From: a virus | Taxonomy: Duplodnaviria > Caudoviricetes | IMG/VR virus record: IMGVR_UViG_3300050142_000050 | Coordinates: 1-64,000 of that record | Direction: 5' to 3' (one strand) | DNA length: 64,000 nt | Part shown: positions 2,811 to 63,885 of the stretch, piece after piece | How positions within the stretch are numbered: position 1 is the stretch's first letter | Layout of the letters: every line of letters starts with the position of its first letter | Notes under the pieces: generated by a model | What the model was told of the DNA's origin: nothing | Seen by the model: the letters and a program-made list of their open reading frames with translations, nothing else | Databases searched by the model: none | Position numbers and translations under genes: made by a program

Positions 2811-2891
2811 AAGCAAAGTAGTTAGCTCAATCGGTGAGAGCAACATGGAGACATGTAGGTTGGTGGTTCGAGTCCATCACTAGGGATGCTT
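2811..2891 (+). ncRNA. tRNA-like RNA or pseudo-tRNA with a GAGA tetraloop instead of an anticodon loop
   Basis: T8A9, D-stem GCTC/GAGC, 5-bp stem ACATG/CATGT with 4-nt loop GAGA, variable loop AGGTT, T-arm GGTGG-TTCGAGT-CCATC, only 4 bp of acceptor stem (TAGT/ACTA), no CCA. Confidence 0.65.
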
Positions 2892-4045: not shown

Positions 4046-5023
4046 GTGACCGTAAGTGTATCCCATAGTCTCGTAATACTAGCTGGTAGTCCCGCCCCAA
4101 CTGCTGTGAGAATTTCTCTAAATAAAGGTGCTACTCCGACCCATGTTGCGGAACAATGGTTGGAGATCGGCGGTCTGATGGGCTATCGAAACCTCGAGGT
4201 TTTTGAAATTAAGTTTGATGCTTTCCGTATGTTGAGGATCGACTTCGACAAATCCGAGGCATATGTCGTGGAGGACGGGGAGTCTTTCAAGCTCGATGTA
4301 AAGAAAACAGCTAGGTTAGTGATACCCGCGCAGATTGAAGGTGTCGATTCTGATCACCTCATGCAACATCTCCCCAATGAGCAGGAAGAAGATCACTCGT
4401 CTCATACTCTGGAATCCACCAGGCTCCACCTGTCCTCATTCGAGAAAGAACCTGAATCCGAATGGAATGGTATCTCCCACAAGCGTATCTCTTTCGACGT
4501 CATAGTCAAGGGTGATACTACCGAAGGGTGGATACTGACATCTGTCGCAGATGTCGACCCCATCCATATCGGTCAGTACCTCCTCAGGAATCTGTCTGGT
4601 AAGCATCGGAAGGAACGGGTTCGTCTCGGTAACTACCTTATTGTGGTCCATCTGGCTGACAAGGTCTTCTCGGTGAGAGACCTGATCTCGGAGTGTGACT
4701 CGTGGGTTTATACTGGAAATGGTGATCGCTACTCTGCTTCGGAAAAGCCTTGTATATACCACCAAGACGGATCCCGCATGGCGCTGTTGGACATGTACCT
4801 CACATGTAGGAATCCATCGAGTGGACTTCGTGTCTCAGAGGACGGCCGAGTATTTCTGTGTAATAGTTATAATTATCTTCATATTACCTACGATAGAGGT
4901 ACCATCAGGTTGACACCCGTCGAGGATGTTTTTCTGAAACATTGGCCCAGTGTTGATTTCGCAGAACTCTCAACGATCATGCTTCGTGAGAAATGCGACA
5001 GATTCGTGTGCAACAGCCTGTGA
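4046..5023 (+). CDS. Hypothetical protein, paralog family A (5' end possibly frameshifted, candidate start 3945)
   Basis: C-terminal half aligns by eye with 3292; weak GTG start, while a strong RBS-ATG at 3945 is in another frame. Confidence 0.7.
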   Translation: MTVSVSHSLVILAGSPAPTAVRISLNKGATPTHVAEQWLEIGGLMGYRNLEVFEIKFDAFRMLRIDFDKSEAYVVEDGESFKLDVKKTARLVIPAQIEGVDSDHLMQHLPNEQEEDHSSHTLESTRLHLSSFEKEPESEWNGISHKRISFDVIVKGDTTEGWILTSVADVDPIHIGQYLLRNLSGKHRKERVRLGNYLIVVHLADKVFSVRDLISECDSWVYTGNGDRYSASEKPCIYHQDGSRMALLDMYLTCRNPSSGLRVSEDGRVFLCNSYNYLHITYDRGTIRLTPVEDVFLKHWPSVDFAELSTIMLREKCDRFVCNSL

Positions 5024-5072
5024 TCTGAAGGAGGATCTTACGACCTCCTGAAAATCATTTTATTCTTATCCG

Positions 5073-5087
5073 CATATTACTCTATTG
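5073..5087 (+). promoter_or_regulatory. Putative early promoter CATATTAC-N5-TG
   Basis: catattac tctat tg, upstream of the strongly codon-biased gene at 5150. Confidence 0.65.
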
Positions 5088-5149
5088 AAGACCACGAGAA
5101 TGTTTGTAAATCTCGATCTTCTTTTTCGCGAAAAATAAGTGAGGTAACC

Positions 5150-5698
5150 ATGTCCAAAGAAAACGAAACCGTGAAGCCCTTCGATGAAGATGGCAAGATT
5201 CAGCTGCTGGCTGATCTGCTGCGTCAGGAATCGGTCGTCGACAAGTCCGGTGTTGTCAATGTCTCCTCGAAGAGCCTGGGCGTCGTGTTCGACAAGCGCG
5301 CTGAAGATGTCGGCGCTGACGTCACCTATGATGCCTTCAAGAAGGGCACTGACATTCTGTCGGACGTCTTGACCAGTGCGGCCGTCGTCGCTCATCGCAT
5401 CAACGATGAAAAGTTTGCTGCTGCTTCGAATGAAGACAAGGCCAGCGAAGATTTCCGCAACAGCCTGACCACCGACGTGCGTCTGAAGACGCCCGGCGGC
5501 TCGACCGAAGTCACGGCCAACTTCCAGACGACGCATCGCGTGCCCGGCAAGGCCGACGACAACGGCAACCCGGTCTACTCGACCAAGTATGGCACCACCG
5601 GTGTGTCGATCAATGCCAAGATGCGCATCGATCCGGCCCTGCACCAGCACAACTCGCGTCGTATCCTTTCGACGATCGAGGAAGTGAGCGCCAGCTGA
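5150..5698 (+). CDS. Hypothetical protein, probably highly expressed
   Basis: GAGG RBS, strong C/G-ending codon bias like chmA and the capsid gene, followed by a GCAA-loop hairpin at 5731-5757. Confidence 0.85.
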   Translation: MSKENETVKPFDEDGKIQLLADLLRQESVVDKSGVVNVSSKSLGVVFDKRAEDVGADVTYDAFKKGTDILSDVLTSAAVVAHRINDEKFAAASNEDKASEDFRNSLTTDVRLKTPGGSTEVTANFQTTHRVPGKADDNGNPVYSTKYGTTGVSINAKMRIDPALHQHNSRRILSTIEEVSAS

Positions 5699-5786
5699 CA
5701 TCAGGCTGAGCCTGATAATTACAAGTGATGGGGGTGGGGGCGCAAGCCTCCGCCCTCACTCATCATTATTTTTGGAGTGTCCTGAT

Positions 5787-6275
5787 ATGGCCAGCTATTA
5801 TTCGAGTTCGTATTTCTCACTCCCTTACAAAGACGAAGAGACTGCACAGAAAATGATGCAGATCTCTTTCATCGACCAGCATGGTGATGAAATTGAGGGT
5901 GTGGTATTCGAAGTCCTCAAAGAAACCAAACGTCTTTACGTCGGTATCGACGAACAAGCGGATACCATCGGTATCGGGCGGTGGATGCTGAAAGCAGGTC
6001 GGCTCAACGGTGCGACCGGTAATAACGCTGCCAACGTAGTGTACTCATGTTCCAAGAAGTGCGAGGATGGTTTCGGTGGGGCAGTGGTGGTGGTCTACCA
6101 CATCGGCCAGAGTATACTCGTGATTGATACTGCCGATATCGCATCCAGGATCGAGGCGCAGCAGGCTATCGGACGTGATATCCCGATTTCCACATTGTAC
6201 GGACCTGATGATGAGTCGATGGCTAGTCATCTTCACTACCTGAGGACCATCACTACACCTGTAATGGAGGGGTAA
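5787..6275 (+). CDS. Hypothetical protein, paralog family A
   Basis: GGAG RBS before ATG 5787; motifs IGRWMLK, GAVVVVYH and IPISTLYGPDD resemble 3292 and 4046. Confidence 0.7.
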   Translation: MASYYSSSYFSLPYKDEETAQKMMQISFIDQHGDEIEGVVFEVLKETKRLYVGIDEQADTIGIGRWMLKAGRLNGATGNNAANVVYSCSKKCEDGFGGAVVVVYHIGQSILVIDTADIASRIEAQQAIGRDIPISTLYGPDDESMASHLHYLRTITTPVMEG

Positions 6276-6277
6276 TC

Positions 6278-6472
6278 ATGTCTATCATTACAGACGGAAG
6301 GCTCGAGAAGTTCAAAACGAATGTCGAACAGAAGAAGGTGACCGTCAACTCCATCCTGAAGCTATGTGATGCAGGATATTACGAAGAGCCCGAAGAACGG
6401 CACCGCATCGATATTCCGTATACTGCGAGCTCGATCACTATCAAAACTCGTCGCAGTGTTACGGAATATTAG
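6278..6472 (+). CDS. Small hypothetical protein
   Basis: GGAGG RBS, tightly coupled to the upstream ORF. Confidence 0.6.
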   Translation: MSIITDGRLEKFKTNVEQKKVTVNSILKLCDAGYYEEPEERHRIDIPYTASSITIKTRRSVTEY

Positions 6473-6514
6473 TCTACGGTTCGAGAGTTCTCTTGTTCTG
6501 GCGAATCAGCCATT

Positions 6515-7156
6515 GTGATACATGCCGCCTCATGTGGTGACCAATCCAACTTCGGGACGGAAGGTCACTCTCTGGCGACAGCGCTCACCTATGGGTCTAA
6601 GGATGTGGTGTGGTTCCATCTCGATGACCATGGGATACCTCATCGTCCTATCACATCCGAGCGCTATGAGGTTTCACCTCCTACGGAAGAAGTGGTGATC
6701 AGTGGACTTGCTCCATTCAGCTTAGCCCTGATATCAGGGCATCTCATCGGCTTCAGGATCGCGACTAGTGATGATGCGTCCAGATTGGTGACGATCGAAC
6801 ATCGAGCACAAAAAGATACCATTCGTTTTCATACAGGTGAGTATCTACAAGTATGGGGTAAAGACGTTCTTGGGGAAGATACCAAGCTCTTCGAATGTAC
6901 TCCTTACGACAGGGCTTATGTCGATGAGACCATTGACATTCACACTAGGCTCTATATGGATCCTTGTGAGTACTCGGGGCACGTGAAGCTCTCGGAATAT
7001 GCACTCGAGTCTATTCGACAGCTCAAGTCCGTGATACGGGAATCTGCGACCTTCATCAGCAGCCTTGTCTTGGATAAATGGATCGATGAGGAATCTGTAT
7101 CGGATATCAGGAAACTGCTATCTGACGTACTCGTGGAACGTCACGACAAGTCGTGA
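6515..7156 (+). CDS. Hypothetical protein
   Basis: 213-aa ORF in the + strand accessory run; start uncertain. Confidence 0.65.
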   Translation: MIHAASCGDQSNFGTEGHSLATALTYGSKDVVWFHLDDHGIPHRPITSERYEVSPPTEEVVISGLAPFSLALISGHLIGFRIATSDDASRLVTIEHRAQKDTIRFHTGEYLQVWGKDVLGEDTKLFECTPYDRAYVDETIDIHTRLYMDPCEYSGHVKLSEYALESIRQLKSVIRESATFISSLVLDKWIDEESVSDIRKLLSDVLVERHDKS

Positions 7157-37836: not shown

Positions 37837-37983
37837 AATGCGATACGTGATGATTAAAATCTTTACGATCGTGTTCGTTCTGCTATAGCGAAGACTAGAA
37901 ATTGAAGCTTCTATACTGGTCATTCGTGTTCCCCTCGAAAAGATCTATCGAGGGTTATTTCATACAAAGTGGAGAATTTTCCC

Positions 37984-39669
37984 ATGGCAGTCGCTGAAAA
38001 CGGTCAACCCACCCCCACCCCGGCATCGCAGGGTGTGGTACCTCCCTCGCACAAGGCTGAGGAAGCGTCCTACAGCACCGGTGCTTACGTTCGTCCTCCC
38101 GCCGACGGCGGCCTGGTCGGCCTGATGAGCGCCCTGAATGCTCCTTCGGTTTCGCCGGAAATCAAGCCCTTCTTGGAAAAGCTGCTCGAGAACCTGAAGG
38201 CTTCGGTCGGCGGTGCTTCGTTCACCAATGTCCGTTGTGAACATGTGGTCGGCTCGCCCAACTCGTTCATCATCGTCCTGCCGTCGACTCGCTACGAGAA
38301 GTCGGAGATGATCTTCCCGCTGCGCTTCGTGGGCGCTGCTTCGACGATCCAGAACTCGACGGATCCCGAAAGCAAGTTCATCAAGAACGCAGTCGAGGCC
38401 TACACCGCAGGTCGTTCGAACCAGATCCTGGTGGGCTCGCTGATCGTCCTGACTCGTGCCGAAGATATGGCTCGCGTCGATCAGGTGACCGAAACCATCC
38501 GTCGTGCATTCGTGTGGCACGACAATCAGGATGCCCACAACGCCACAGCATCGGGCTTTGCCGGCTACGAGCTGATCGTCACGACCGACGAGGCTACCGC
38601 ATCGGAAATTCTGAAGCGTCACTCGACCACGAGCACTCAGGTTCGTATCGATGTCGCGATGAACGTCATGCTGCGCCGTCCTCGCCGCGCTGGCTACCTC
38701 GCCTATCAGGAACAGGGTGATGATCGACCGATCCCGCTGGGCTCGATCGGTGGTTATGTTGACTTCCCGGGTGAACAGCCGGAATTCAATCCTGCGCAGA
38801 ACACGCAGGTCATGCGTCAGAAGCCGCTGGTCTACATCACTGCGATGCAGTGCGACCTGCCCATCGCTCCTGTGATCGCAATGTTGGTGTCGGCCTTCAC
38901 GTCGGAAGTCATCAACAACCGTCGTTTCTGGCTGCAACAGTACATCCCGACCCTGGGCGGTACCGATCCGATCCATCCCGGCGTACTGGCTCCCGACCCG
39001 CAGACCAACACGCCGGCCGATATCCCGACCGACGTGCATCTGGAAGAATTCGCATCGGCTGTGTTCGCCGATGTCGACGTCGCTATCCAGTTCCAGGATG
39101 GTCACGACAACCTGCCGCATCTGGCAGAAATGCTGAACTCGGCAAGCGCCCCTGACTTCGTGCGTGAATGCGCTCGTTTCTTCGGCGTGGGCGAAGACCT
39201 GTTCCCGCAGGGGATGGTTCCTACCCAGCACTACCGCTCGGACATCGAAGGTGTCTATGGTTCGTGGGATGGTAACCTGCGCGATTCGCGCTACATCGAC
39301 TTCGTCAACTATGCCTCCAAGCATGGTCTGGCCAGCTGTAACGAGAAGACCAAGACGCTGCTCCTGCGTCGTGACTACCCGGCTCAGACGCGTGAACGCG
39401 CTCTGGAGATCTCGAACATCATCGCGAACTCCGGCCAGGTCTTCCGTCCTCTGTATGACACCTCGGTCCACATCGTCGCTCGAGGCTTTGTGAACGCGGT
39501 GACCCATGCGATGAGCCGTGCTGGTGTGACGATCACCAACCCGAGCGCGCCGATCACTGCTCAGAATGTTGCCTACTGGCAGCAGGTCGCCGGCAATGTC
39601 AACGTCGCTCGTGCCATCGGTGCTGGCAGCTACAACGGCCCCGCCTACAACGGTGGTCGCGCCTGGTAA
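37984..39669 (+). CDS. chmA: Chimallin, phage nuclear shell protein
   Basis: About 560 aa, strongest codon bias, early promoter, directly upstream of the nvRNAP beta' N-terminal gene as in phiKZ gp54/gp55; GGAG RBS favours ATG 37984. Confidence 0.78.
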   Translation: MAVAENGQPTPTPASQGVVPPSHKAEEASYSTGAYVRPPADGGLVGLMSALNAPSVSPEIKPFLEKLLENLKASVGGASFTNVRCEHVVGSPNSFIIVLPSTRYEKSEMIFPLRFVGAASTIQNSTDPESKFIKNAVEAYTAGRSNQILVGSLIVLTRAEDMARVDQVTETIRRAFVWHDNQDAHNATASGFAGYELIVTTDEATASEILKRHSTTSTQVRIDVAMNVMLRRPRRAGYLAYQEQGDDRPIPLGSIGGYVDFPGEQPEFNPAQNTQVMRQKPLVYITAMQCDLPIAPVIAMLVSAFTSEVINNRRFWLQQYIPTLGGTDPIHPGVLAPDPQTNTPADIPTDVHLEEFASAVFADVDVAIQFQDGHDNLPHLAEMLNSASAPDFVRECARFFGVGEDLFPQGMVPTQHYRSDIEGVYGSWDGNLRDSRYIDFVNYASKHGLASCNEKTKTLLLRRDYPAQTRERALEISNIIANSGQVFRPLYDTSVHIVARGFVNAVTHAMSRAGVTITNPSAPITAQNVAYWQQVAGNVNVARAIGAGSYNGPAYNGGRAW

Positions 39670-39937: not shown

Positions 39938-41260
39938 ATGACTCAGGAAAATATCCAAGAAGAAGATCTGAACGGTATTATGACAGATACCGATCTGAGC
40001 ATCCTCAGACTCGTCGATCATGATAACCAGTTCGTTGTCAGTGGTCGCAACCTCAATGGGAAGGTGAATGTCCTTAACTCTTACGACCTCAACTCAGGGG
40101 ACTTCGTAAGTAGTATCATCGAAGTCATCGCTTCTAATGGGAGTAATGGTGACTCGGTGGCTCATTGCGACTGTGGGTGCACTGAGGGTGATCAACGTAT
40201 CGGTAGTAGGTGTCGTGAATGCGGTACTTTCGTGCAGAAGCGTGAGATCACTGATGATGACAATCTGACCAATGCGAATTGGTTCAGGTGTCCTGAGGAA
40301 TTGGCTTCGGGATGGTTGCATCCTGTCGTATACATGATCCTCTCCAACTGGCTCGTCTATGAGCGCAAGAAGAAAGGTGGTCGCAACTACCTCGACGATA
40401 TCCTCAATGTCGACGCTGAGGTCGACTATGAGATCGCCAATGTGGTGAATGGTCGTGGGTTCCAATATCTGCGCGACAACTTCGATCGACTGATGGACTT
40501 CTTCATCAATGACCATCCGAAAATTTCGGAGAAGTCTGAGTCGAAGACTATGCGCTTCTTCCTTGACATGTACAAGGATGTCATCTGGTGTCGGTATATA
40601 CCGATCATGCCAGCAGCGCTCAATCCCATCACCAGTCGTGATCCTGACAGTGTCCAGGCTTCACGTCAGATCGATCCCATCACTACCCATGTGATGGAAG
40701 CGGCATCTATCCTCTCGGAGATCGACTTCGGGACTAAGCGCCGTAAGGATCGTCAGCTCAAGGTAGAGCGACAAGTGTGGGCAGCCTATCAGGCTATCAT
40801 CGCCTACAATGAAGAAGCCACTCGTAAGTTCCACTCGACGAAGAAGGCTATCCCTCGTACACAGATGCTGGGTGCTCGTATGCACCTCACATTCCGTGCG
40901 GTGATCGGTCCCATCATCGGTGAGCACGTACACGACGAACTCCACATCCCGTGGTCCATCGGCGTGAACACTTTGCGGGTGCACATCATCGGTATCCTCC
41001 AGAACCGATATGACTACATGCTCGTAGATGCTCAGCGCATCCACAGTCGAGCTATTACGACCTATGACAAAACAGTCGATGACATCATGAAGTCTTTGAT
41101 TGAGGAGAGTCCATGTCACGGTCTACCTGTACTGTGGCACCGCCCTCCATCTATCCGGGATGGTAACGTGATGCTCAAGCGCGTCACGCGTATCAAGACG
41201 GACATCAACGATCCATCAATTAGTATGACGCCTATCGACGTCGCTCTCCCAAATGCGGAT
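39938..41260 (+). CDS. nvRNAP beta' N-terminal subunit (phiKZ gp55-like), exon 1
   Basis: Zn ribbon CDCG...CREC, GARMHLTFRAVI, HRPPSI; ends in NAD of the catalytic NADxDGD motif. Confidence 0.88.
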
Positions 41261-41627
41261 TAACTATTAGTCCTACGTCATCGAGAGGTGACGGTAAATA
41301 TCTCCTTAATTGCGGGGAAGTCTCATTAAGTTCTCACACACCAAGTGGATCATGGAAACATGATAATCCATGGCGACGCTAATTACGTCGGTACGGTAAA
41401 AGATGTGAGATAGAGAAAATCCGCAGCCAAGTGCCTAAGTCCTTCTTGGATATGGTAAAGGTTCAACGGCCATCGCAGGCATGCGAGTAGGGATCGAGTG
41501 ATCCCGAAATGGGAGACCCCTCCTCTGGAGGGTGAAGATATGGTCTGTTCCTACATGAGAATGTAGGCGGAGCTGCCTCTATATGAGGACAAGCCGGGTG
41601 AGTCTAACGAGCTCACTGGACATCAAG
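41261..41627 (+). ncRNA. Group I intron (367 nt, no homing endonuclease) in the nvRNAP beta' gene
   Basis: P1 ggat|taa-cta-tta-gtcc with U.G at the splice site; P aattgcggggaa 41308, Q aatccgcagc 41418, R gttcaacggccat 41461, S aagatatggtc 41535; terminal G; splicing restores NAD-YDGD. Confidence 0.92.
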
Positions 41628-41804
41628 TATGACGGGGACACGCTGGCAGGGATTCTGCTGGTAGAATGGGAGATGGTAAAAGCCATGCGGCGTATGTCGA
41701 CCGACAATCTGATCTGGGATCGCAACACAGGGCGAGTCAGCGAGGAAATCGGTGTGTCCAAAGACGTCGCTCAGGTCATGAATAGGTTCTTGGGAGTTCT
41801 TTAA
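41628..41804 (+). CDS. nvRNAP beta' N-terminal subunit, exon 2
   Basis: Begins YDGDTL, in frame after the intron-terminal G (58 aa; spliced product 499 aa). Confidence 0.88.
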   Translation, partial: YDGDTLAGILLVEWEMVKAMRRMSTDNLIWDRNTGRVSEEIGVSKDVAQVMNRFLGVL

Positions 41805-41859
41805 CTTAATAGATCACCATGATCATTTGAGTTAGAGGTAAGAGAACGGGGAACAACAG

Positions 41860-42471
41860 ATGGCAATTATCCGTATCAATCCAGGTGTTTCTTCGGGATA
41901 CGGGATGCCGAGTCTTTCGACGTTGATGGGATCTGGTGTGAGTGGTAGTGTCTTTGACAGTATCAACACCAATGCTCATGACGCTTTGTTCGCAGAGCGT
42001 TTTGCAGGGTTGCACCAGAACTTCATGGATCTCCATGTCAAGCCACTCGAAGCGGTGGCTCGTGAAGTAGGTGGTCTGTTCAATCAGGCTACTAACCCCA
42101 ACGTCTATCGACCACTGATCTCGGAGAATGACTTCTATGCAATTCCAAACTGCATGGAACTCCCGATCATGATGATGCCTGAAATGCGTAAGCTCCTAGT
42201 GGAGGGACGCATCAATGGTTTCGGCTATACCCCGGAAGATATCCCGGAAGACGACTCGTTCGGGCGAGTGCTCGATCGATTCCACGTACCCGACGTGGAA
42301 GCTGCATCCAATAAGGATGGCTATTTCACAGTGACTGCCAGGTTCGAAGAATTCGACCCTGTGTTGGACGACACGCAATTCTACGCATTGCGCCGTACTC
42401 GCGGTGCTATCCGTAAGTTGTTGGAAGACACGGAGCTCGATCCGACGGACATCGGCACGATTCGTGGGTGA
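41860..42471 (+). CDS. Conserved chimallivirus core hypothetical protein
   Basis: Follows the beta' gene; GRINGFGY motif; synteny. Confidence 0.6.
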   Translation: MAIIRINPGVSSGYGMPSLSTLMGSGVSGSVFDSINTNAHDALFAERFAGLHQNFMDLHVKPLEAVAREVGGLFNQATNPNVYRPLISENDFYAIPNCMELPIMMMPEMRKLLVEGRINGFGYTPEDIPEDDSFGRVLDRFHVPDVEAASNKDGYFTVTARFEEFDPVLDDTQFYALRRTRGAIRKLLEDTELDPTDIGTIRG

Positions 42472-57316: not shown

Positions 57317-57404
57317 GAAATAGACCTGACAGGTGCTCACTTCCTCAAAATATAGGGTTCTCCAAAATAGGAGTTCTCTCTTTTCACAAAAGGGGTCAAC
57401 ACAA

Positions 57405-58667
57405 ATGCCTAGTAATATTGGCAAGGAATATCCCTATCTTGCAAACACCACAATGGACGTTCGTCTGTTGGGTATGCCATATCTACTCACATCGTTCCCA
57501 CAGCAGATCTCAGGATCTCGTGGTGACATGTACAACCACCACCAAGCACAAGCGATGGTGCTCAATAAGCCGGGTCTGGCTGGTGTGTTCTCTGGATTGG
57601 AACCTCAGTTCCGTGAACACATGGTGGAACCTCTAACGCGTCCGCATCGGGTGAAGGTCCTCAGGGTCATTCCGAAGTACCGCAGGGGTTTCATGGACAA
57701 CTGGGCCAAGAATTGTCCAGAGCGTTATGTGATCGTCGAGACAGAGGAAACCAATCCCAAGACCGGAAACAAGTTCGGTAGGTTGGACGTCTTGACGATC
57801 AGTACCTATTACGAAGGTGCTAATGGATTCGGCTATCTGCCGATCCTCAAGAATGTGGACAAGCTGACAGTCGGAGCCTATCTGGATCCTGACATGATCT
57901 TCTCCCATTCCCCTGGGATCATCGGTGACGATTATGGCTTCGGTGTGGATCTCAATGTGATCTATGGATCCTTTGCTGAGACCATCGAGGATGCTTTCGT
58001 CATCAGTGAATCAGCAGCGAAGAAGCTGGAGACCACTGAGGTCAAGTCCCACATCATCAATGTGGTACCTGATCGTCGTCCCCTCAACCTCTATGGTGAC
58101 GATAGTCTCCCGCAGTTCCTCCCCAACATCGGGGACTTCGTGCGTGAAGATGGTATCCTCTGCGGGCAGCGTCCTTCGCACTGGGCGACTGTGGCAGCTG
58201 ATGCTGATCCTAATGCCCTCAAGGAGGTATTGCCCTTCCAGGACAAGTTGTGGCGTCCTGCTGGCATGACTGGTGACACTAAGGTGATCGACGTCACCTT
58301 TGCAGCTAACCTGAACAACATCGGTGATTGTTATCCCCAAGTGGAGCGGCACATCAGCGACTATGTGACTGGGTGCTGTAAGTCACTGCTGGAAGTCTTC
58401 TACCAGTACTGTGAGCCGATTGGGAATCGTCCTCCTCTCCTCACTCCAACAAATCGCATGAACGAACTCTTCGTCCGTGCGTTCAAGCACTTCATCGGGA
58501 TGGGAGGACGCGATGTCCGTCTCGATGGTATCTTCAAGTCCGAGATGAAGCGTAGTCAGCTGGAAGGATTCGACGGACGTCCTGTCGAGTTCATTCAGGC
58601 TAAGGTGGTGACAGCTAAACGCCGTAAGGTGACTGCTACATCGAAGCTTACTGATAAATCGGGTGGT
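57405..58667 (+). CDS. nvRNAP beta C-terminal subunit (phiKZ gp71-73-like), exon 1
   Basis: SRGDMYNHHQAQA, GVDLNVIYGSFAETIEDAFVIS, ends KLTDKSGG; RBS and ATG at 57405. Confidence 0.87.
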
Positions 58668-59028
58668 TTACACTAAGCCTCCATAATCTGAGAAGGTTAT
58701 GGAAATCTCCTCTAATTGCGGGGAAGCCCTTAGAGCTCAAGATACCAAGTCTGAGAATAACTCTCTCAGATGGCCGATGTAATCAATCGGGTATGGTAAC
58801 AACTCTTGAGATTGGGTAATCGCGCAGCCAAGCAGGGCCTCTATGGGGTTTTGAAGGTCCAACGGCTAACCGCTTACCACGGTGTAGGAGTCAGTGACTC
58901 CGAAATGGGGAGCACCCTACTCTAACGAGAGGGTGAAGATATAGTCTGCTCACATGTGAGAGCATGTGCGGAGCTGCCTCTATACGAGGACGAGCCGGGT
59001 GAGTCTAACGAACTCACTGGACAGTAGG
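58668..59028 (+). ncRNA. Group I intron (361 nt, no homing endonuclease) in the nvRNAP beta gene
   Basis: P1 ggt|tta-cac-taa-gcc with U.G; P aattgcggggaa 58714, R gtccaacggcta 58857, S aagatatagtc 58936; terminal G; splicing gives KLTDKSGG-KGV, aligning with the beta motif KLAGRHGNKGV. Confidence 0.9.
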
Positions 59029-60243
59029 AAAGGAGTCAGTGCCGTAATCTGGCCTGATAGCTATATGCCCGTCGATGAGTACGGCAACGTAGCTGAAGTG
59101 ATGATCGGTGGCTCCACATTCGTGAGCCGTAATAATCCGAGTGGTCCCATCGAAGTGGGAATCAACTTCATCAGCGAGATTGTCAGGAAGCGTGCTCACA
59201 CGATCAAGGTATCGTCCGGTACTGAGGAAGCCTTGAAGGAAGTCCTCGAATGGTGCAAAGATGTCAATCCGATGTATCACAAGGTCATCGAGGAAACATA
59301 CACCACACCGGTTCAGCGTGAAGCCTTCTTGAACGACATGCTCAAGCAGTTCCGAGTATGGGCTCCGCCTACGTTGGATACGTTTGCGCCGACGGAGGAG
59401 GATCGTCTTAACGTCCTCAGGAACTTCTCGATGTGGTCTGAGAAGTATGGTGCGTATCCGACACACATCACGCGCCTGATTCCACAAGCGGATGGTACCC
59501 TCAAGAAGTTCGTCTCTGACGATAAGTTTGTGATCGGTAAGAAGTATATCCTTCACCTCAGCAAACTTCCTACCCAGACAGCTCCTGGGTTTGCTTCGAC
59601 TAACCACATGGGTATCCCAATCAAGTCCAGTCAGGAGAGTAAGTTCTCCCCTGTGAGCTTGAGTCCTTACAAATTCGGTGAGGATGAAATCCGTGTTATG
59701 TCGATGGACTCTTCTGTCAAGGAAGTGGGACGCCTGATGGCGCTCTATGCTAACTCGCCCACGGGTGTGAAGCAAGTCATCCGTACGATCTTGGAAGCTG
59801 AGCATCCTACTCGGATCGCTCGTACTCCTATTTCGAATGGTGAATTGGCACGAACCAACACAGTGCTCAGGGCGTTCCATTCTTCGACGACTGCATTGGG
59901 TGTGGAAACCCGCAATACGCTGGTGACCAGTCAGATGCAGATCCCTGATGAGATTCGTCGGATCATCGCTGATTCGGAAATCTTTGTACCGCCTGGTGAG
60001 GATGATGATGAATCTCATCTCCCCAAGCCGGTGGCTACACGGCAGAAGAAGAAGCCTCGTAAGACGGCTCCTACCACAGCTGAGGTGGAAGCTATCGAAG
60101 GTGAGATGATCCTCCCGGAGTCGGACCTGGGAGTAGCTGACGTCACGCCGGTCGAGATCAGCACTGAGATCGATATCGAGACCGATATCCAGGGTATGTA
60201 TGGTGAGTTAGGAGGGAACTATTCCTCCGATGACGATGATTGA
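59029..60243 (+). CDS. nvRNAP beta C-terminal subunit, exon 2
   Basis: KGVSAVIWPDSYMPVDEYG, SRNNPS, LHLSK, KFGEDE; acidic tail. Confidence 0.87.
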   Translation, partial: KGVSAVIWPDSYMPVDEYGNVAEVMIGGSTFVSRNNPSGPIEVGINFISEIVRKRAHTIKVSSGTEEALKEVLEWCKDVNPMYHKVIEETYTTPVQREAFLNDMLKQFRVWAPPTLDTFAPTEEDRLNVLRNFSMWSEKYGAYPTHITRLIPQADGTLKKFVSDDKFVIGKKYILHLSKLPTQTAPGFASTNHMGIPIKSSQESKFSPVSLSPYKFGEDEIRVMSMDSSVKEVGRLMALYANSPTGVKQVIRTILEAEHPTRIARTPISNGELARTNTVLRAFHSSTTALGVETRNTLVTSQMQIPDEIRRIIADSEIFVPPGEDDDESHLPKPVATRQKKKPRKTAPTTAEVEAIEGEMILPESDLGVADVTPVEISTEIDIETDIQGMYGELGGNYSSDDDD

Positions 60244-60301
60244 TTGAGTATCGGTGGGAGGAAGCTCCTCCCACCATTTTCACAAATGGGGTGATCTAGA
60301 T

Positions 60302-62326
60302 ATGGTAGAAGTCTATAACCCTTCGCGCGTGTTGTCAGAAGACTGGCGTACTATGTGCGTCGAACGCCGATTTGAGCCAGTGGCTCTAGAGACCCTCGAA
60401 GGTCCCATCGAGATGAACTATGCTTATCTCTTGGTGAACCTGATGATCAACATGCCGATCATCGAACGGGGATTTCCCATCCCGGGTATGAAGACGGTTT
60501 TCCCCATGAGGACAATCTATGGGAACAAAGTCCAAGCCGGACTCCTCGAGAACGTAGTCCAGTATCTCGAGTCCCATGGATATGTCCGTGACAATCTCGG
60601 ACGATCCGTCATGAGTGTGGCTCAGGCCAGCCACAACATCTATTATTCGCACTTGGCTGGCTATGCGATCCCTCTCGACATCTTCTCGATCGCGAAGACG
60701 TTCCTCCAACCTGAAGTCGAGGCTCTCCTTGATCCTGGGTATGGGGATAAGTCTGATCAGGATATCCATCGGATGTCCGAGCAGTTCCGCAACAACTGTA
60801 AGAGGTTGACTGATCTGCTCAAGTCGTCGAGCCTTCCCTTCAACGCGCTGCGGTCTCCTTTGATCACTGGGTCGCTGAAGGAACAGCAGTTCTGGCAATT
60901 CGCTATGTCGGTGGGACCTCGTTCCGACTCTGACGAGCGAATCTTCCTGGAGCCGGTGGATGGTGCATTCCTTACAGGTATGAAGGACATTATCGACTTT
61001 GCTCTGGAAAGTCGTGCTGCTGCTAAGGCTAAGTATTACAGTTATCAGTTCATGCCCCAGGCGGCATATACCTCACGTAAGAACCACATCCAGACTTCGG
61101 TGTTCAGGTATCTGTACCGAGGCGACTGTGGCTCTAAGGTATTCCTTGAGTATCACCCGACCAAGGAGACCTTCGATTATCACCTAGGACGGTTCTACAA
61201 GACCGACGATGGTGGTCTGCGTGAGATTACCACCGATAACAAGCATGAGGTCCTCAACAAGGATATCCTCCTACGAGATCCTCATGGATGTCGCTATGTG
61301 GATGGTGTCTGTGAGGTCTGCATGGGGACCATCAGTAAGCACTTCCCGACCGATGGTAACATCGGTTTCATCGCTAACTCGAAGACTACGTCTCCGATGG
61401 CTCAGGCGGTGTTGTCGGCAAAGCACTTGGCGATGCCGATCGTGATGCTCTATTCCATCCCGCCCAAGTTGGTTGATATCTTCTACTCCAACAAGAACAA
61501 TGACATCTACTTCCACGACCGCATCAAGTCTGTGGCTAAGAATCGAGCCATCGGTTTCGATGTCAAGGATGTCAAGAAGATCGATGACCTCCAGCACACT
61601 ACGAGTGATGATCTCAAGTCCTCGTATTATTCGAAGATCATGCGTCTGACATACGCAGAGATCGACGATCGTGATACCATCGGGAGGATCATCGTCAAGT
61701 CGAACATGGAGTCCGAGGTGGGTAAAGCCTATCCTCATCTCGCGACTGAAGTGCTCAACATCATCCGTAAGGATCCTAGCGTCCTTATCAGGCAGGGGAA
61801 TACTATCTGGCTCCGGCTGGACAAGATCGACCTCGACAAGCCCGTGATGCAGTGCACTGTCATGAATGACTCGATTCGTTTCTATGTGGCTGACTTCCGA
61901 GAGTTCGTCACGACACGCGTCGAGCGTTATACTTCGGCTAACTTGGCACTGCGGGATCTGTGCAAGATCATCTGGGGACGTGTGGGTGCACACTCCAGTC
62001 TGATCTCTATCCTCCTGCGGTCATGCTTGGTGACGAGTGCCACCGACTATTCCATCCCAGCGATCAAAGATCCTGATGATGTGATGTATGCTCGTCAATC
62101 CAAGATCATACCTATGCGGAGTGTGGCTAATTACTTCGCATTCCAGGGCTATGCCCAGAGTCGGTGCAAAACAGGGATGTTCATCATTCCTAAGCGCCGT
62201 GGTCAGTTCGATGAAATGATGGGTTATACAGACACCATCGCCCGTGATGCTAATTGGCCACCCTATTCGGATGTTCTCCATGAGATCCCGATGGGCACCA
62301 ATGAGACGATCGGTTTCTACCACTGA
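60302..62326 (+). CDS. nvRNAP beta' C-terminal subunit (phiKZ gp74-like)
   Basis: YRGDCGS, LRDPHGCRYVDGVCEVCMG Zn site, NIGF...AQAVLSAKH trigger-loop region. Confidence 0.87.
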   Translation: MVEVYNPSRVLSEDWRTMCVERRFEPVALETLEGPIEMNYAYLLVNLMINMPIIERGFPIPGMKTVFPMRTIYGNKVQAGLLENVVQYLESHGYVRDNLGRSVMSVAQASHNIYYSHLAGYAIPLDIFSIAKTFLQPEVEALLDPGYGDKSDQDIHRMSEQFRNNCKRLTDLLKSSSLPFNALRSPLITGSLKEQQFWQFAMSVGPRSDSDERIFLEPVDGAFLTGMKDIIDFALESRAAAKAKYYSYQFMPQAAYTSRKNHIQTSVFRYLYRGDCGSKVFLEYHPTKETFDYHLGRFYKTDDGGLREITTDNKHEVLNKDILLRDPHGCRYVDGVCEVCMGTISKHFPTDGNIGFIANSKTTSPMAQAVLSAKHLAMPIVMLYSIPPKLVDIFYSNKNNDIYFHDRIKSVAKNRAIGFDVKDVKKIDDLQHTTSDDLKSSYYSKIMRLTYAEIDDRDTIGRIIVKSNMESEVGKAYPHLATEVLNIIRKDPSVLIRQGNTIWLRLDKIDLDKPVMQCTVMNDSIRFYVADFREFVTTRVERYTSANLALRDLCKIIWGRVGAHSSLISILLRSCLVTSATDYSIPAIKDPDDVMYARQSKIIPMRSVANYFAFQGYAQSRCKTGMFIIPKRRGQFDEMMGYTDTIARDANWPPYSDVLHEIPMGTNETIGFYH

Positions 62327-62388
62327 CCGAGTGATAACGAGCTCCCCACCACGTGGTGGGGAGCTACAGTTTATAGAGGTACGTTTCG

Positions 62389-63885
62389 ATGGGCACTATC
62401 AACATCTATACGACGACGCTTGGGTTCCGTGTGGGTGTGGAGCCCGATGGGACCTTGAGTAACACCAACACCTACATCTCTGAGTATGCTAGGGCATTGC
62501 AGCAGTGGGACTTCGATTCCAAATCCCGTCGGTATGAGAAGGTGGAAGATTTCTACCACTACGACGAGACCACGAAGACTGCGTATTTCCCCAGGTACGA
62601 TCTCGAGCGATTTATTTCCTTCATCTGTTATTACGGACATAAGGAAAACATCATCCCAGTGGCACCTGTCAAAGGTGATCCAGCGAAATTCTACATGTTG
62701 CCGCATATCACGTATAAAGACGAACTCCAGAAAGAAGCTGTCGAGTTTATCACGGACGAGAAGAATGGTCCGGTACGTGCATTGGCAATTCAAACAGGCA
62801 GAGGTAAGACCACGGCCACAGTGATGGCGATGTCACACCTAGGTGTGCGTACCATGGTGACTATGACTACGCGCCTGGAGCAGTGGGTACCTGCTATCAA
62901 GCAGTATGCAGCGGTAGACGATGGAGAGATTTACACCATCAAAGGTGAACCATCTCTCACCAAGATCATCCGCATGGCTGAACGTAAGGATAAGCTCCCC
63001 AAGATCATCCTAGCATCGGCTCAGACTCTCAAGAACTACATGAAGTATAAGGAAGGTTATCGACACCTACCTAATCCTTCTACCTTCTGCGAGTTGCTGG
63101 GTATCGGCATCATCGCCGATGACGAATATCACGAGCACTTCCACACCAATTTCATGATGGGATTGCTGTTTAATGCAGCTGTCTATATCCCAGTATCTGC
63201 CACACTGGTGGTGAACCACAAGTTCATCCGTGGTATCTTTGACAAAGTTGTACCTCAAAAGGTAAGGTTTGGCGGAGAGTACGCCAAATACGTCAAGGTG
63301 TTGGAGTGTTCGATGGAGTTTGGCGGTCACCTGGTCAAACCTCATCACTACAAGCAACGAGGTGCGTATAGCCAATCGAAGTTTGAGGAATTCCTCTTAT
63401 CTGAGAAAGGCGCACCTCTCATGGAAATGTACTGGAGGAAGGCTATCCTACCTCTAGTCACAGAGCAGTACATCGAACTAGCAGAAGAAGGAGAAAAGCT
63501 ACTTATCATCGCGAATACTCGTGCCATGTGCGAAGAGCTACAGGTACGACTGAAGAGAATCACAAATCGTTCTATCGGTATCTTCGTATCGGGTGTCTCT
63601 ACGACAGTGCTCGATAAGTCGGATATCATCCTGTCTACCCCGGGTAGTGCAGGAACTGGTCGGGACGTGGCTATGCTGCGCTCATGCATCGTACTGGAAA
63701 ATACAGCTAGTGAGGCTCGTATTATTCAGTTCTTAGGTCGACTGCGTATGATGAAGTCTGGTAATATCCCAGTCTTTGTCACATGCTACTTCTCATGTAT
63801 CCCTCAACATCAGAGGTATGCAACAATCCGCTCAATGCTCTATGCAGAAAGAGCAAAGGAGTTAATCTATCGGAGATTATCATGA
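62389..63885 (+). CDS. SF2 (UvsW-like) DExH helicase (phiKZ gp75-like)
   Basis: IQTGRGKT, DEYH, VSAT, GTGRD and QFLGRLR motifs. Confidence 0.85.
   Translation: MGTINIYTTTLGFRVGVEPDGTLSNTNTYISEYARALQQWDFDSKSRRYEKVEDFYHYDETTKTAYFPRYDLERFISFICYYGHKENIIPVAPVKGDPAKFYMLPHITYKDELQKEAVEFITDEKNGPVRALAIQTGRGKTTATVMAMSHLGVRTMVTMTTRLEQWVPAIKQYAAVDDGEIYTIKGEPSLTKIIRMAERKDKLPKIILASAQTLKNYMKYKEGYRHLPNPSTFCELLGIGIIADDEYHEHFHTNFMMGLLFNAAVYIPVSATLVVNHKFIRGIFDKVVPQKVRFGGEYAKYVKVLECSMEFGGHLVKPHHYKQRGAYSQSKFEEFLLSEKGAPLMEMYWRKAILPLVTEQYIELAEEGEKLLIIANTRAMCEELQVRLKRITNRSIGIFVSGVSTTVLDKSDIILSTPGSAGTGRDVAMLRSCIVLENTASEARIIQFLGRLRMMKSGNIPVFVTCYFSCIPQHQRYATIRSMLYAERAKELIYRRLS

Follow-up and report, generated by a model that had tools for sequence, protein, structure and literature searches.

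An endonuclease-free group I intron predicted in the catalytic motif of a jumbo-phage RNA polymerase gene

In an uncultivated jumbo phage from leaf litter, the catalytic metal-binding motif of an RNA polymerase subunit is encoded in two pieces, and the 367 nt between them very probably represent a functional, endonuclease-free, self-splicing group I intron, whose removal would be required for obtaining the catalytic subunit. The stretch under study, here called the window, comprises the first 64,000 nt (64 kb) of IMG/VR record IMGVR_UViG_3300050142_000050 (249,638 bp), and the interrupted gene is assigned to the beta-prime subunit of the non-virion RNA polymerase (nvRNAP). A sequence-only reading of the window had proposed the intron, and its description of the letters is accurate: exon 1 ends with AAT GCG GAT (NAD, 41252-41260), the next in-frame codon is a TAA stop (41261-41263) in the 3' half of the 5' strand of helix P1, and exon 2 starts with TAT GAC GGG GAC (YDGD) at 41628, immediately after G41627. 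The search with the Rfam group I model RF00028, which that reading had suggested as a check, gave a match at 41251-41567 over the full model (positions 1-253). The score of 76.5 bits is well above the gathering cut-off (50 bits), and the E value of 1.2e-17 puts the match far beyond chance.

Since the intron and exon 2 both begin with T, a spliced mRNA by itself would leave an ambiguity of 1 nt. The cuts are nevertheless fixed at 41260/41261 and 41627/41628 by the rules for group I introns, i.e. a U at position -1 that is paired to a G, and a terminal G. The predicted spliced junction thus reads ...CCAAAUGCGGAU/UAUGACGGGGAC..., i.e. ...GCGGAU/UAUGAC.... Taken together, the sequence displays a covariance model score above the gathering threshold over the whole model, the U·G pair at the 5' site, the terminal guanosine (omega-G), a covarying core and a restored frame, all of which characterize a group I intron. 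A homing endonuclease gene, as found in mobile group I introns, is missing, as had been noted from the letters: the longest open reading frame (ORF) wholly inside 41261-41627 has 27 codons. An in-frame ATG at 41583 lies ahead of exon 2, and the ORF 41583-41804 starts there.

The aspartates of the DxDGD motif of beta-prime chelate the catalytic Mg2+. That the intron interrupts precisely this motif of an RNA polymerase gene, as the sequence-only reading had held, is borne out by profile and structure matches. Exon 1 matches phrog_2987 ('RNA polymerase beta subunit') with an E value of 2e-65 at profile positions 6-418, and exon 2 continues at positions 419-474, so that the two matches are contiguous across the junction; Pfam gave nothing significant for either exon. 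The best match among solved structures is chain A of 7OGP, the nvRNAP protein gp55+gp56.1 of phiKZ (E 2e-32), and the alignment stops exactly at PNAD; the nvRNAP beta-prime of AR9 has YDGD at the position where exon 2 starts. By these matches the host gene is a homologue of phiKZ gp55, the N-terminal beta-prime piece of the nvRNAP.

Relatives of the host protein were drawn from a search of 5.8 billion proteins. The 30 relatives (36-53% identity) show a bimodal length distribution: 13 are uninterrupted, with 482-499 aa, and run through ...PNADFDGDNLAG..., and about 15 have 424-446 aa and end in the motif or just past it. When joined, the exons of the window gene give ...PNAD/YDGDTLAG..., a protein of 499 aa that has the same length as the closest intact homologue (P0004), with which exon 2 shares 57% identity at the C-terminus. 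In alignment A1 the joined product, DVALPNAD/YDGDTLAGILLVEWEM..., is gapless against the 13 intact homologues. Short of RNA, the exact junction is best supported by this gapless alignment to intact proteins, and together with the profile boundary at 418/419 the alignment upholds the position that had been read from the letters.

The anatomy of the ribozyme was derived from the Rfam alignment, a minimum free energy (MFE) fold and comparison with related introns (Table 1). The P/Q/R/S core elements and P1, described earlier as visible, could all be located, and the conserved U and G of the Rfam model fall on the U41260·G41270 wobble pair that forms the 5' splice site. Folded on its own by MFE, the intron is more stable than shuffled sequences (z = -3.0) and shows P1, P2, P3, P4, P5, P5a-c, P6a/b, P7.1, P7.2, P8, P9, P9.1 and P9.2. 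An RNAalifold consensus was calculated for seven introns, namely the three of this genome (41261-41627 and its two sisters), the phiKZ gp55 intron and three introns of metagenomic relatives. In this consensus, 58 of the 85 pairs show compensatory change on both sides, and they cover P2, P3, P4, P5, P5a-c (several in each of P5a, P5b and P5c), P6, P7.1, P7.2, P8, P9 and P9.2. P7 is a pseudoknot, which RNAalifold cannot draw; it covaries at two positions across 11 introns (GGCC/GGUC, GGCU/AGUC, GACU/AGUC, GAUC/GAUC) and would be the guanosine-binding helix. P7.1 and P7.2, which sit between P7 and the 3' strand of P3, place the intron by its predicted structure in subgroup IA, the usual subgroup of phage group I introns. 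RNAalifold also pairs the guide segment GUCC (41270-41273) with GGAC (41617-41620) near the 3' end of the intron, and the first two of these pairs are kept in six of the seven introns. This helix may be an alternative that competes with P1, or both segments may be conserved for other reasons.

Table 1. Features of the interrupted gene, the predicted ribozyme, its sister introns and the insertion points in relatives (window positions unless stated otherwise; offsets relative to the insertion point of intron 1).
Feature	Position	Strand	Description	Basis
Exon 1	39938-41260	+	nvRNAP beta-prime N-terminal gene (phiKZ gp55 family), 441 codons, ends ...DVALPNAD	phrog_2987, PDB 7OGP
Intron 1	41261-41627	+	predicted group I intron, IA-type, 367 nt, ORF-less	RF00028, MFE fold, covariation, ORF scan
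Exon 2	41628-41804	+	58 codons plus stop, starts YDGDTLAG	phrog_2987, P0004 identity, gapless alignment A1
Terminal guanosine (omega-G)	41627	+	last intron base	sole G giving an in-phase junction colinear with intact homologues
P1	41257-41273	+	7-bp hairpin, GGAU/UAA (41257-41263) with internal guide UUAGUCC (41267-41273), 3-nt loop (CUA)	Rfam alignment, MFE fold
P2	41276-41293	+	7 bp, GAGA loop	7 of 7 pairs with compensatory change among relatives
P3	41301-41516	+	41301-41306 with 41511-41516; surrounds P4-P6 and P7.1/P7.2	consensus, MFE fold
P element	41308-41317	+	AAUUGCGGGG	
P4	41310-41426	+	41310-41316 with 41420-41426; inside: P5 (41321-41324 with 41413-41416) and P5a-c	consensus, MFE fold
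Q element	41418-41428	+	AAUCCGCAGCC	
R element	41461-41471	+	GUUCAACGGCC	
P7	41466-41548	+	pseudoknot, ACGGCC (41466-41471) with GGUCUGU (41542-41548)	paired by hand
P7.1 and P7.2	41473-41505	+	41473-41477 with 41482-41486; 41490-41495 with 41500-41505	RNAalifold consensus, MFE fold
P8	41518-41532	+		consensus, MFE fold
S element	41534-41545	+	GAAGAUAUGGUC	
P9, P9.1, P9.2	41550-41619	+	41550-41567; 41574-41591; 41595-41619	consensus, MFE fold
Intron 2	58668-59028	+	361 nt, ORF-less, in nvRNAP beta gene (phiKZ gp71/73 family)	RF00028, 76.4 bits
Intron 3	record 109566-111373, outside the window	-	1808 nt, virion RNAP beta-prime N-terminal gene (phrog_2986), GADHDGD/KVS	Rfam
Point A/PNADFDGD	offset -12 nt		Xanthomonas phage LucasX, LUCX_60/61, not annotated	54.7 bits
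Point N/ADFDGD	offset -6 nt		phiKZ	
Point NA/DFDGD	offset -3 nt		L016, with HNH	
Point NAD/FDGD	offset 0		intron 1; L011 and L010a with HNH; L017a without; probably L009	
Point FDGD/	offset +12 nt		L010b, L012, L013, L014, L017b	

From the anatomy and covariation of the intron, and from the role of the aspartates in Mg2+ binding, we infer that the intron is spliced out, that it does so autocatalytically and that unspliced RNA yields an inactive protein. Exon 1 ends with GGAU, and in the precursor transcript these bases would pair with the internal guide UUAGUCC to form P1. An external guanosine in P7 would attack after U41260, the freed exon 1 would attack after G41627, and GAU would be joined to UAU, thereby restoring a single frame of 499 codons with the metal-binding motif NADYDGD. 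Unspliced RNA would be translated only up to D441, stopping at the opening TAA of the intron. Because only one of the three catalytic aspartates is left in such a product, the earlier suggestion that it would be catalytically dead is a sound one.

To compare insertion points, the contigs of nine relatives were retrieved and their exons mapped, and LucasX and phiKZ were added. Introns in this gene are present in about half of the metagenomic relatives, and the group I introns occupy five different positions in a coding segment of 24 nt; all introns of this comparison except those of L009 and L013 are supported by Rfam. Three relatives share the insertion point of the window intron at the nucleotide level (…GCN GAT/TTY GAY GG…). 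These same-site introns (L011, L010a and L017a) score 88-93 bits with RF00028, and their host proteins are 43% identical to that of the window. Like the window intron, L017a is ORF-less (363 nt), whereas the P1 loops of L011 and L010a accommodate HNH endonuclease ORFs (290 and 428 aa, respectively). This location in the P1 loop, with the 5' splice site ahead of the ORF and the internal guide behind it, is common to the HNH-bearing copies; in L011, GCGGAU pairs with GUCCGC about 850 nt downstream. L010 (4291-6459) and L017 (4273-5096) even have two tandem introns each, with a 12-nt exon, TTC GAY GGT GAT (FDGD), between them, and both L017 introns are ORF-less. The L013 intron (4288-6861) apparently combines a 443-aa HNH in the P1 loop with a 220-aa LAGLIDADG endonuclease after P7, and owing to this large insertion it remains below the Rfam gathering threshold.

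The Rfam-backed introns of L011, L010 and L017 at the identical nucleotide support our interpretation of the window intron, as does phiKZ, where the homologue is split in the same motif and the structure has been solved for the fused gp55+gp56.1. The window intron would seem to belong to a family of related introns that have settled in active-site motifs of RNA polymerase genes of jumbo phages. As its P1 loop has 3 nt and lacks the HNH of most relatives, this copy could not move alone. The core identity to the same-site introns is only 57-63%, no closer than to the sister introns or to introns at other sites, and a simple vertical relationship is therefore not shown. Orthology with the same-site introns is accordingly not supported, and either loss of an endonuclease or its absence from the start would fit. 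In cultured phages, none of the matches in a coarse spread sample (60 of 141 tblastn matches) stops at NAD; those of phiKZ-like phages and of LucasX stop before the motif. In LucasX (MW825358.1) we noted a 411-nt intron at 62451-62861 (RF00028, 54.7 bits) that is not annotated and that joins LUCX_60 and LUCX_61, both called 'hypothetical protein', into one gp55-family gene (LKA/PNADFDGD).

The whole record contains three group I introns according to Rfam. Intron 2 interrupts the nvRNAP beta gene at ...TDKSGG/KGVSAV, with contiguous profile matches to phrog_3295 (8-403 and 404-687). This is the point of the phiKZ gp71/gp72/gp73 intron (HGG/KGV), and the ORFs 57333-58676 and 58966-60243 are one beta gene split by the intron. 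Introns 1 and 2 are 60-63% identical overall, depending on the alignment, and their 3' modules (P9.1-P9.2; 41567-41622 and 58968-59023) are identical at 53 of 56 positions, which suggests a recent recombination or gene conversion between the two. The P1 loop of intron 3 contains an ORF for an HNH endonuclease of 443 aa, and this enzyme is over its full length 36-45% identical to the endonucleases of the relatives' nvRNAP beta-prime introns. All three introns are located in active-site motifs of RNA polymerase genes, and the same three genes are interrupted in phiKZ (gp55, gp71/73 and gp180).

The closest known system is the gp55 intron of phiKZ. There, gp55 (annotated with 420 aa) precedes the HNH endonuclease gene gp56, after which comes the 61-codon gp56.1, and the exons read KAPN/ADFDGD; the group I core at the end of gp56 scores 75.6 bits with RF00028. 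The two introns share the gene family, the catalytic motif and the general group I type, and the second exons are close in size (61 codons in phiKZ and 58 in the window). Spliced gp55+gp56.1 is the form present in the solved nvRNAP structures (7OGP). The phiKZ intron, however, is inserted 6 nt upstream of the window intron (KAPN/ADFDGD versus PNAD/YDGD) and encodes a 334-aa HNH downstream of its 5' splice site and ahead of the ribozyme core, and the core identity is about 54%. In RefSeq (NC_004629.1, 47923-50761), gp55 (420 aa) and gp56.1 (61 aa) are kept as separate coding sequences without a join, whereas a fused gp55+gp56.1 chain of 508 residues is used in PDB entries 7OGP, 7OGR, 8QUE and 9RJS.

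The sequence-only reading had set the missing endonuclease against HNH-associated nvRNAP introns in phiKZ and PhiPA3. For phiKZ this comparison is correct (gp55/gp56 HNH/gp56.1). The HNH intron of PhiPA3 (gp210), on the other hand, resides in the beta gene of the virion RNA polymerase (PMC11620839), and the PhiPA3 gp55 homologue is uninterrupted. The phiKZ gp71/gp72/gp73 and PhiPA3 gp210 introns resemble the window intron in being group I introns at active-site motifs of chimallivirus RNA polymerase genes, but they encode an HNH and lie in beta genes, not in beta-prime. The novelty implied by that reading was overstated as well. An intron in the same motif of phiKZ has been known since 2002, when it was predicted, as cited in PMC11512511; its spliced protein is found in PDB 7OGP, and L017 is ORF-less at the identical site. 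Introns in this motif of this gene were thus already known, and what is new is an endonuclease-free example 6 nt downstream of that of phiKZ.

The T4 introns of td, nrdB and sunY belong to subgroup IA2, have P7.1/P7.2, and are inserted in conserved parts of nucleotide-metabolism genes. They resemble the window intron in the J3/4, J6/7 and J8/7 consensus (AAUUGCGGG…, GUUCAAC…, GAAGAUAUAGUC), in P7.1/P7.2, and in an in-frame stop soon past the 5' splice site. They differ in their host genes and in carrying, now or once, GIY-YIG or HNH ORFs in the loops of P6 or P9, whereas the ORFs in the family of the window intron are placed in the P1 loop.

Several observations weigh against a functional intron. 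The genome is a metagenomic assembly with an estimated completeness of 89%, P10 is weak (about 2 bp), and none of the 24 runs that hold the stretch 40700-42200, every one of them leaf-litter DNA, is recorded as RNA, so that splicing and the junction are not directly seen. Moreover, under the conditions of a long-read transcriptome study (bioRxiv 10.1101/2023.10.13.562163), the phiKZ gp56, gp72 and gp179 introns reportedly gave no spliced reads; efficient splicing in vivo is therefore poorly documented at the RNA level for this intron family. The contigs of four of the DNA runs contained neither an intron-less allele nor a spliced joint, where uncovered bins prove nothing, and the only partial matches there came from the sister intron 2 cross-aligning to 41528-41622. 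Close cultured relatives were not found: the gene had no megablast match in the phage collection, and the closest cultured phages are less than 28% identical at the protein level. A scan of IMG/VR viral contigs with exon 1 confirmed no relative.

One alternative is that the intron has decayed and lost the ability to splice, leaving either a pseudogene or two separate polypeptides, the second one started from the ATG of the ORF 41583-41804. The lost endonuclease and the missing RNA runs would agree with such a scenario, but we regard it as very unlikely. The core helices and conserved joining segments are intact and score as high as in HNH-bearing relatives, the exon frames are intact and conserved in what is a core gene, and the sequence is unchanged in at least 19 metagenomic runs. 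Furthermore, no protein is known to us whose chain is interrupted after the first and before the second aspartate of a single metal site. Also improbable, if somewhat less so, is a regulatory gate in which the efficiency of excising this intron and its sister in the beta gene would time or condition the formation of active nvRNAP. It is true that both catalytic subunits of the nvRNAP have an intron at the active-site motif, that the 3' modules of these introns are nearly identical, and that environmental control of phage group I splicing has been reported in literature cited in 10.1101/2023.10.13.562163. Yet the gene is free of introns in about half of the relatives, the insertion points vary and no regulatory element was found, a pattern that is better explained by selfish invasion of conserved DNA than by a conserved control device.

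Another proposal would add a function to the self-splicing intron rather than replace it. The intron parts GCGGAT from TATGACGGGGAC in the DNA and may so destroy the recognition site of the relatives' HNH endonucleases, and possibly also that of the phage's own intron-3 HNH in the virion RNA polymerase gene; the ORF-less copy would then be retained as immunity in co-infection and not as a mere relic. HNH-bearing introns at the same site or 3-12 nt away (L011, L010, L016, L012 and L013) are in line with this idea, as is the similarity of the intron-3 HNH to the enzymes of relatives. There is also a precedent, as the PhiPA3 intron endonuclease cuts the intron-less RNA polymerase gene of co-infecting phiKZ and thereby confers a competitive advantage (PMC11620839). 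By analogy with this PhiPA3-phiKZ intron warfare, the 24 nt encoding A-P-N-A-D-F-D-G-D might be a contested landing strip, on which the ORF-less copy is kept as immunity without a weapon. We put both suggestions forward tentatively, as possible but doubtful, because the cleavage site is known for none of these enzymes, 13 of the approximately 28 relatives do without any intron here, and immunity is a by-product of any homing intron, which makes selection indistinguishable from persistence.

With regard to annotation, the ORFs 39938-41263 and 41583-41804 are to be treated as one gene. The same correction applies to LUCX_60/61 of LucasX and to numerous contigs of jumbo phages from metagenomes, in which the polymerase subunit is truncated by gene callers. 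The finding adds an endonuclease-free member to the introns in RNA polymerase active sites of phiKZ-like phages and, together with the relatives, reveals a dense targeting of one catalytic motif, which is useful for studies of how the introns of co-infecting phages compete. Existing knowledge of group I introns and of phage polymerases is left as it was.

The nvRNAP gene is flanked by a conserved gp59-like gene of 203 aa and an ORF of 566 aa, neither of which is an endonuclease. The 203-aa gene, located downstream, corresponds to PhiPA3 055 and phiKZ gp59 in size and position, with a weak match to phrog_3254 (E 1.7e-4). The upstream ORF 37969-39666 was considered as chimallin, the nuclear-shell protein, but it has no PHROG hit, and BLASTP against phiKZ gp54 gave an E value of 0.13; since it cannot be identified as chimallin, we make no claim that the phage forms a nucleus. 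Further downstream, at 57333-63885, the beta gene, the second beta-prime piece and a helicase follow the order of phiKZ gp71-75. Finally, a tRNA-like match with a short anticodon region is present at window positions 2819-2882 on the plus strand (RF00005, 37.4 bits).

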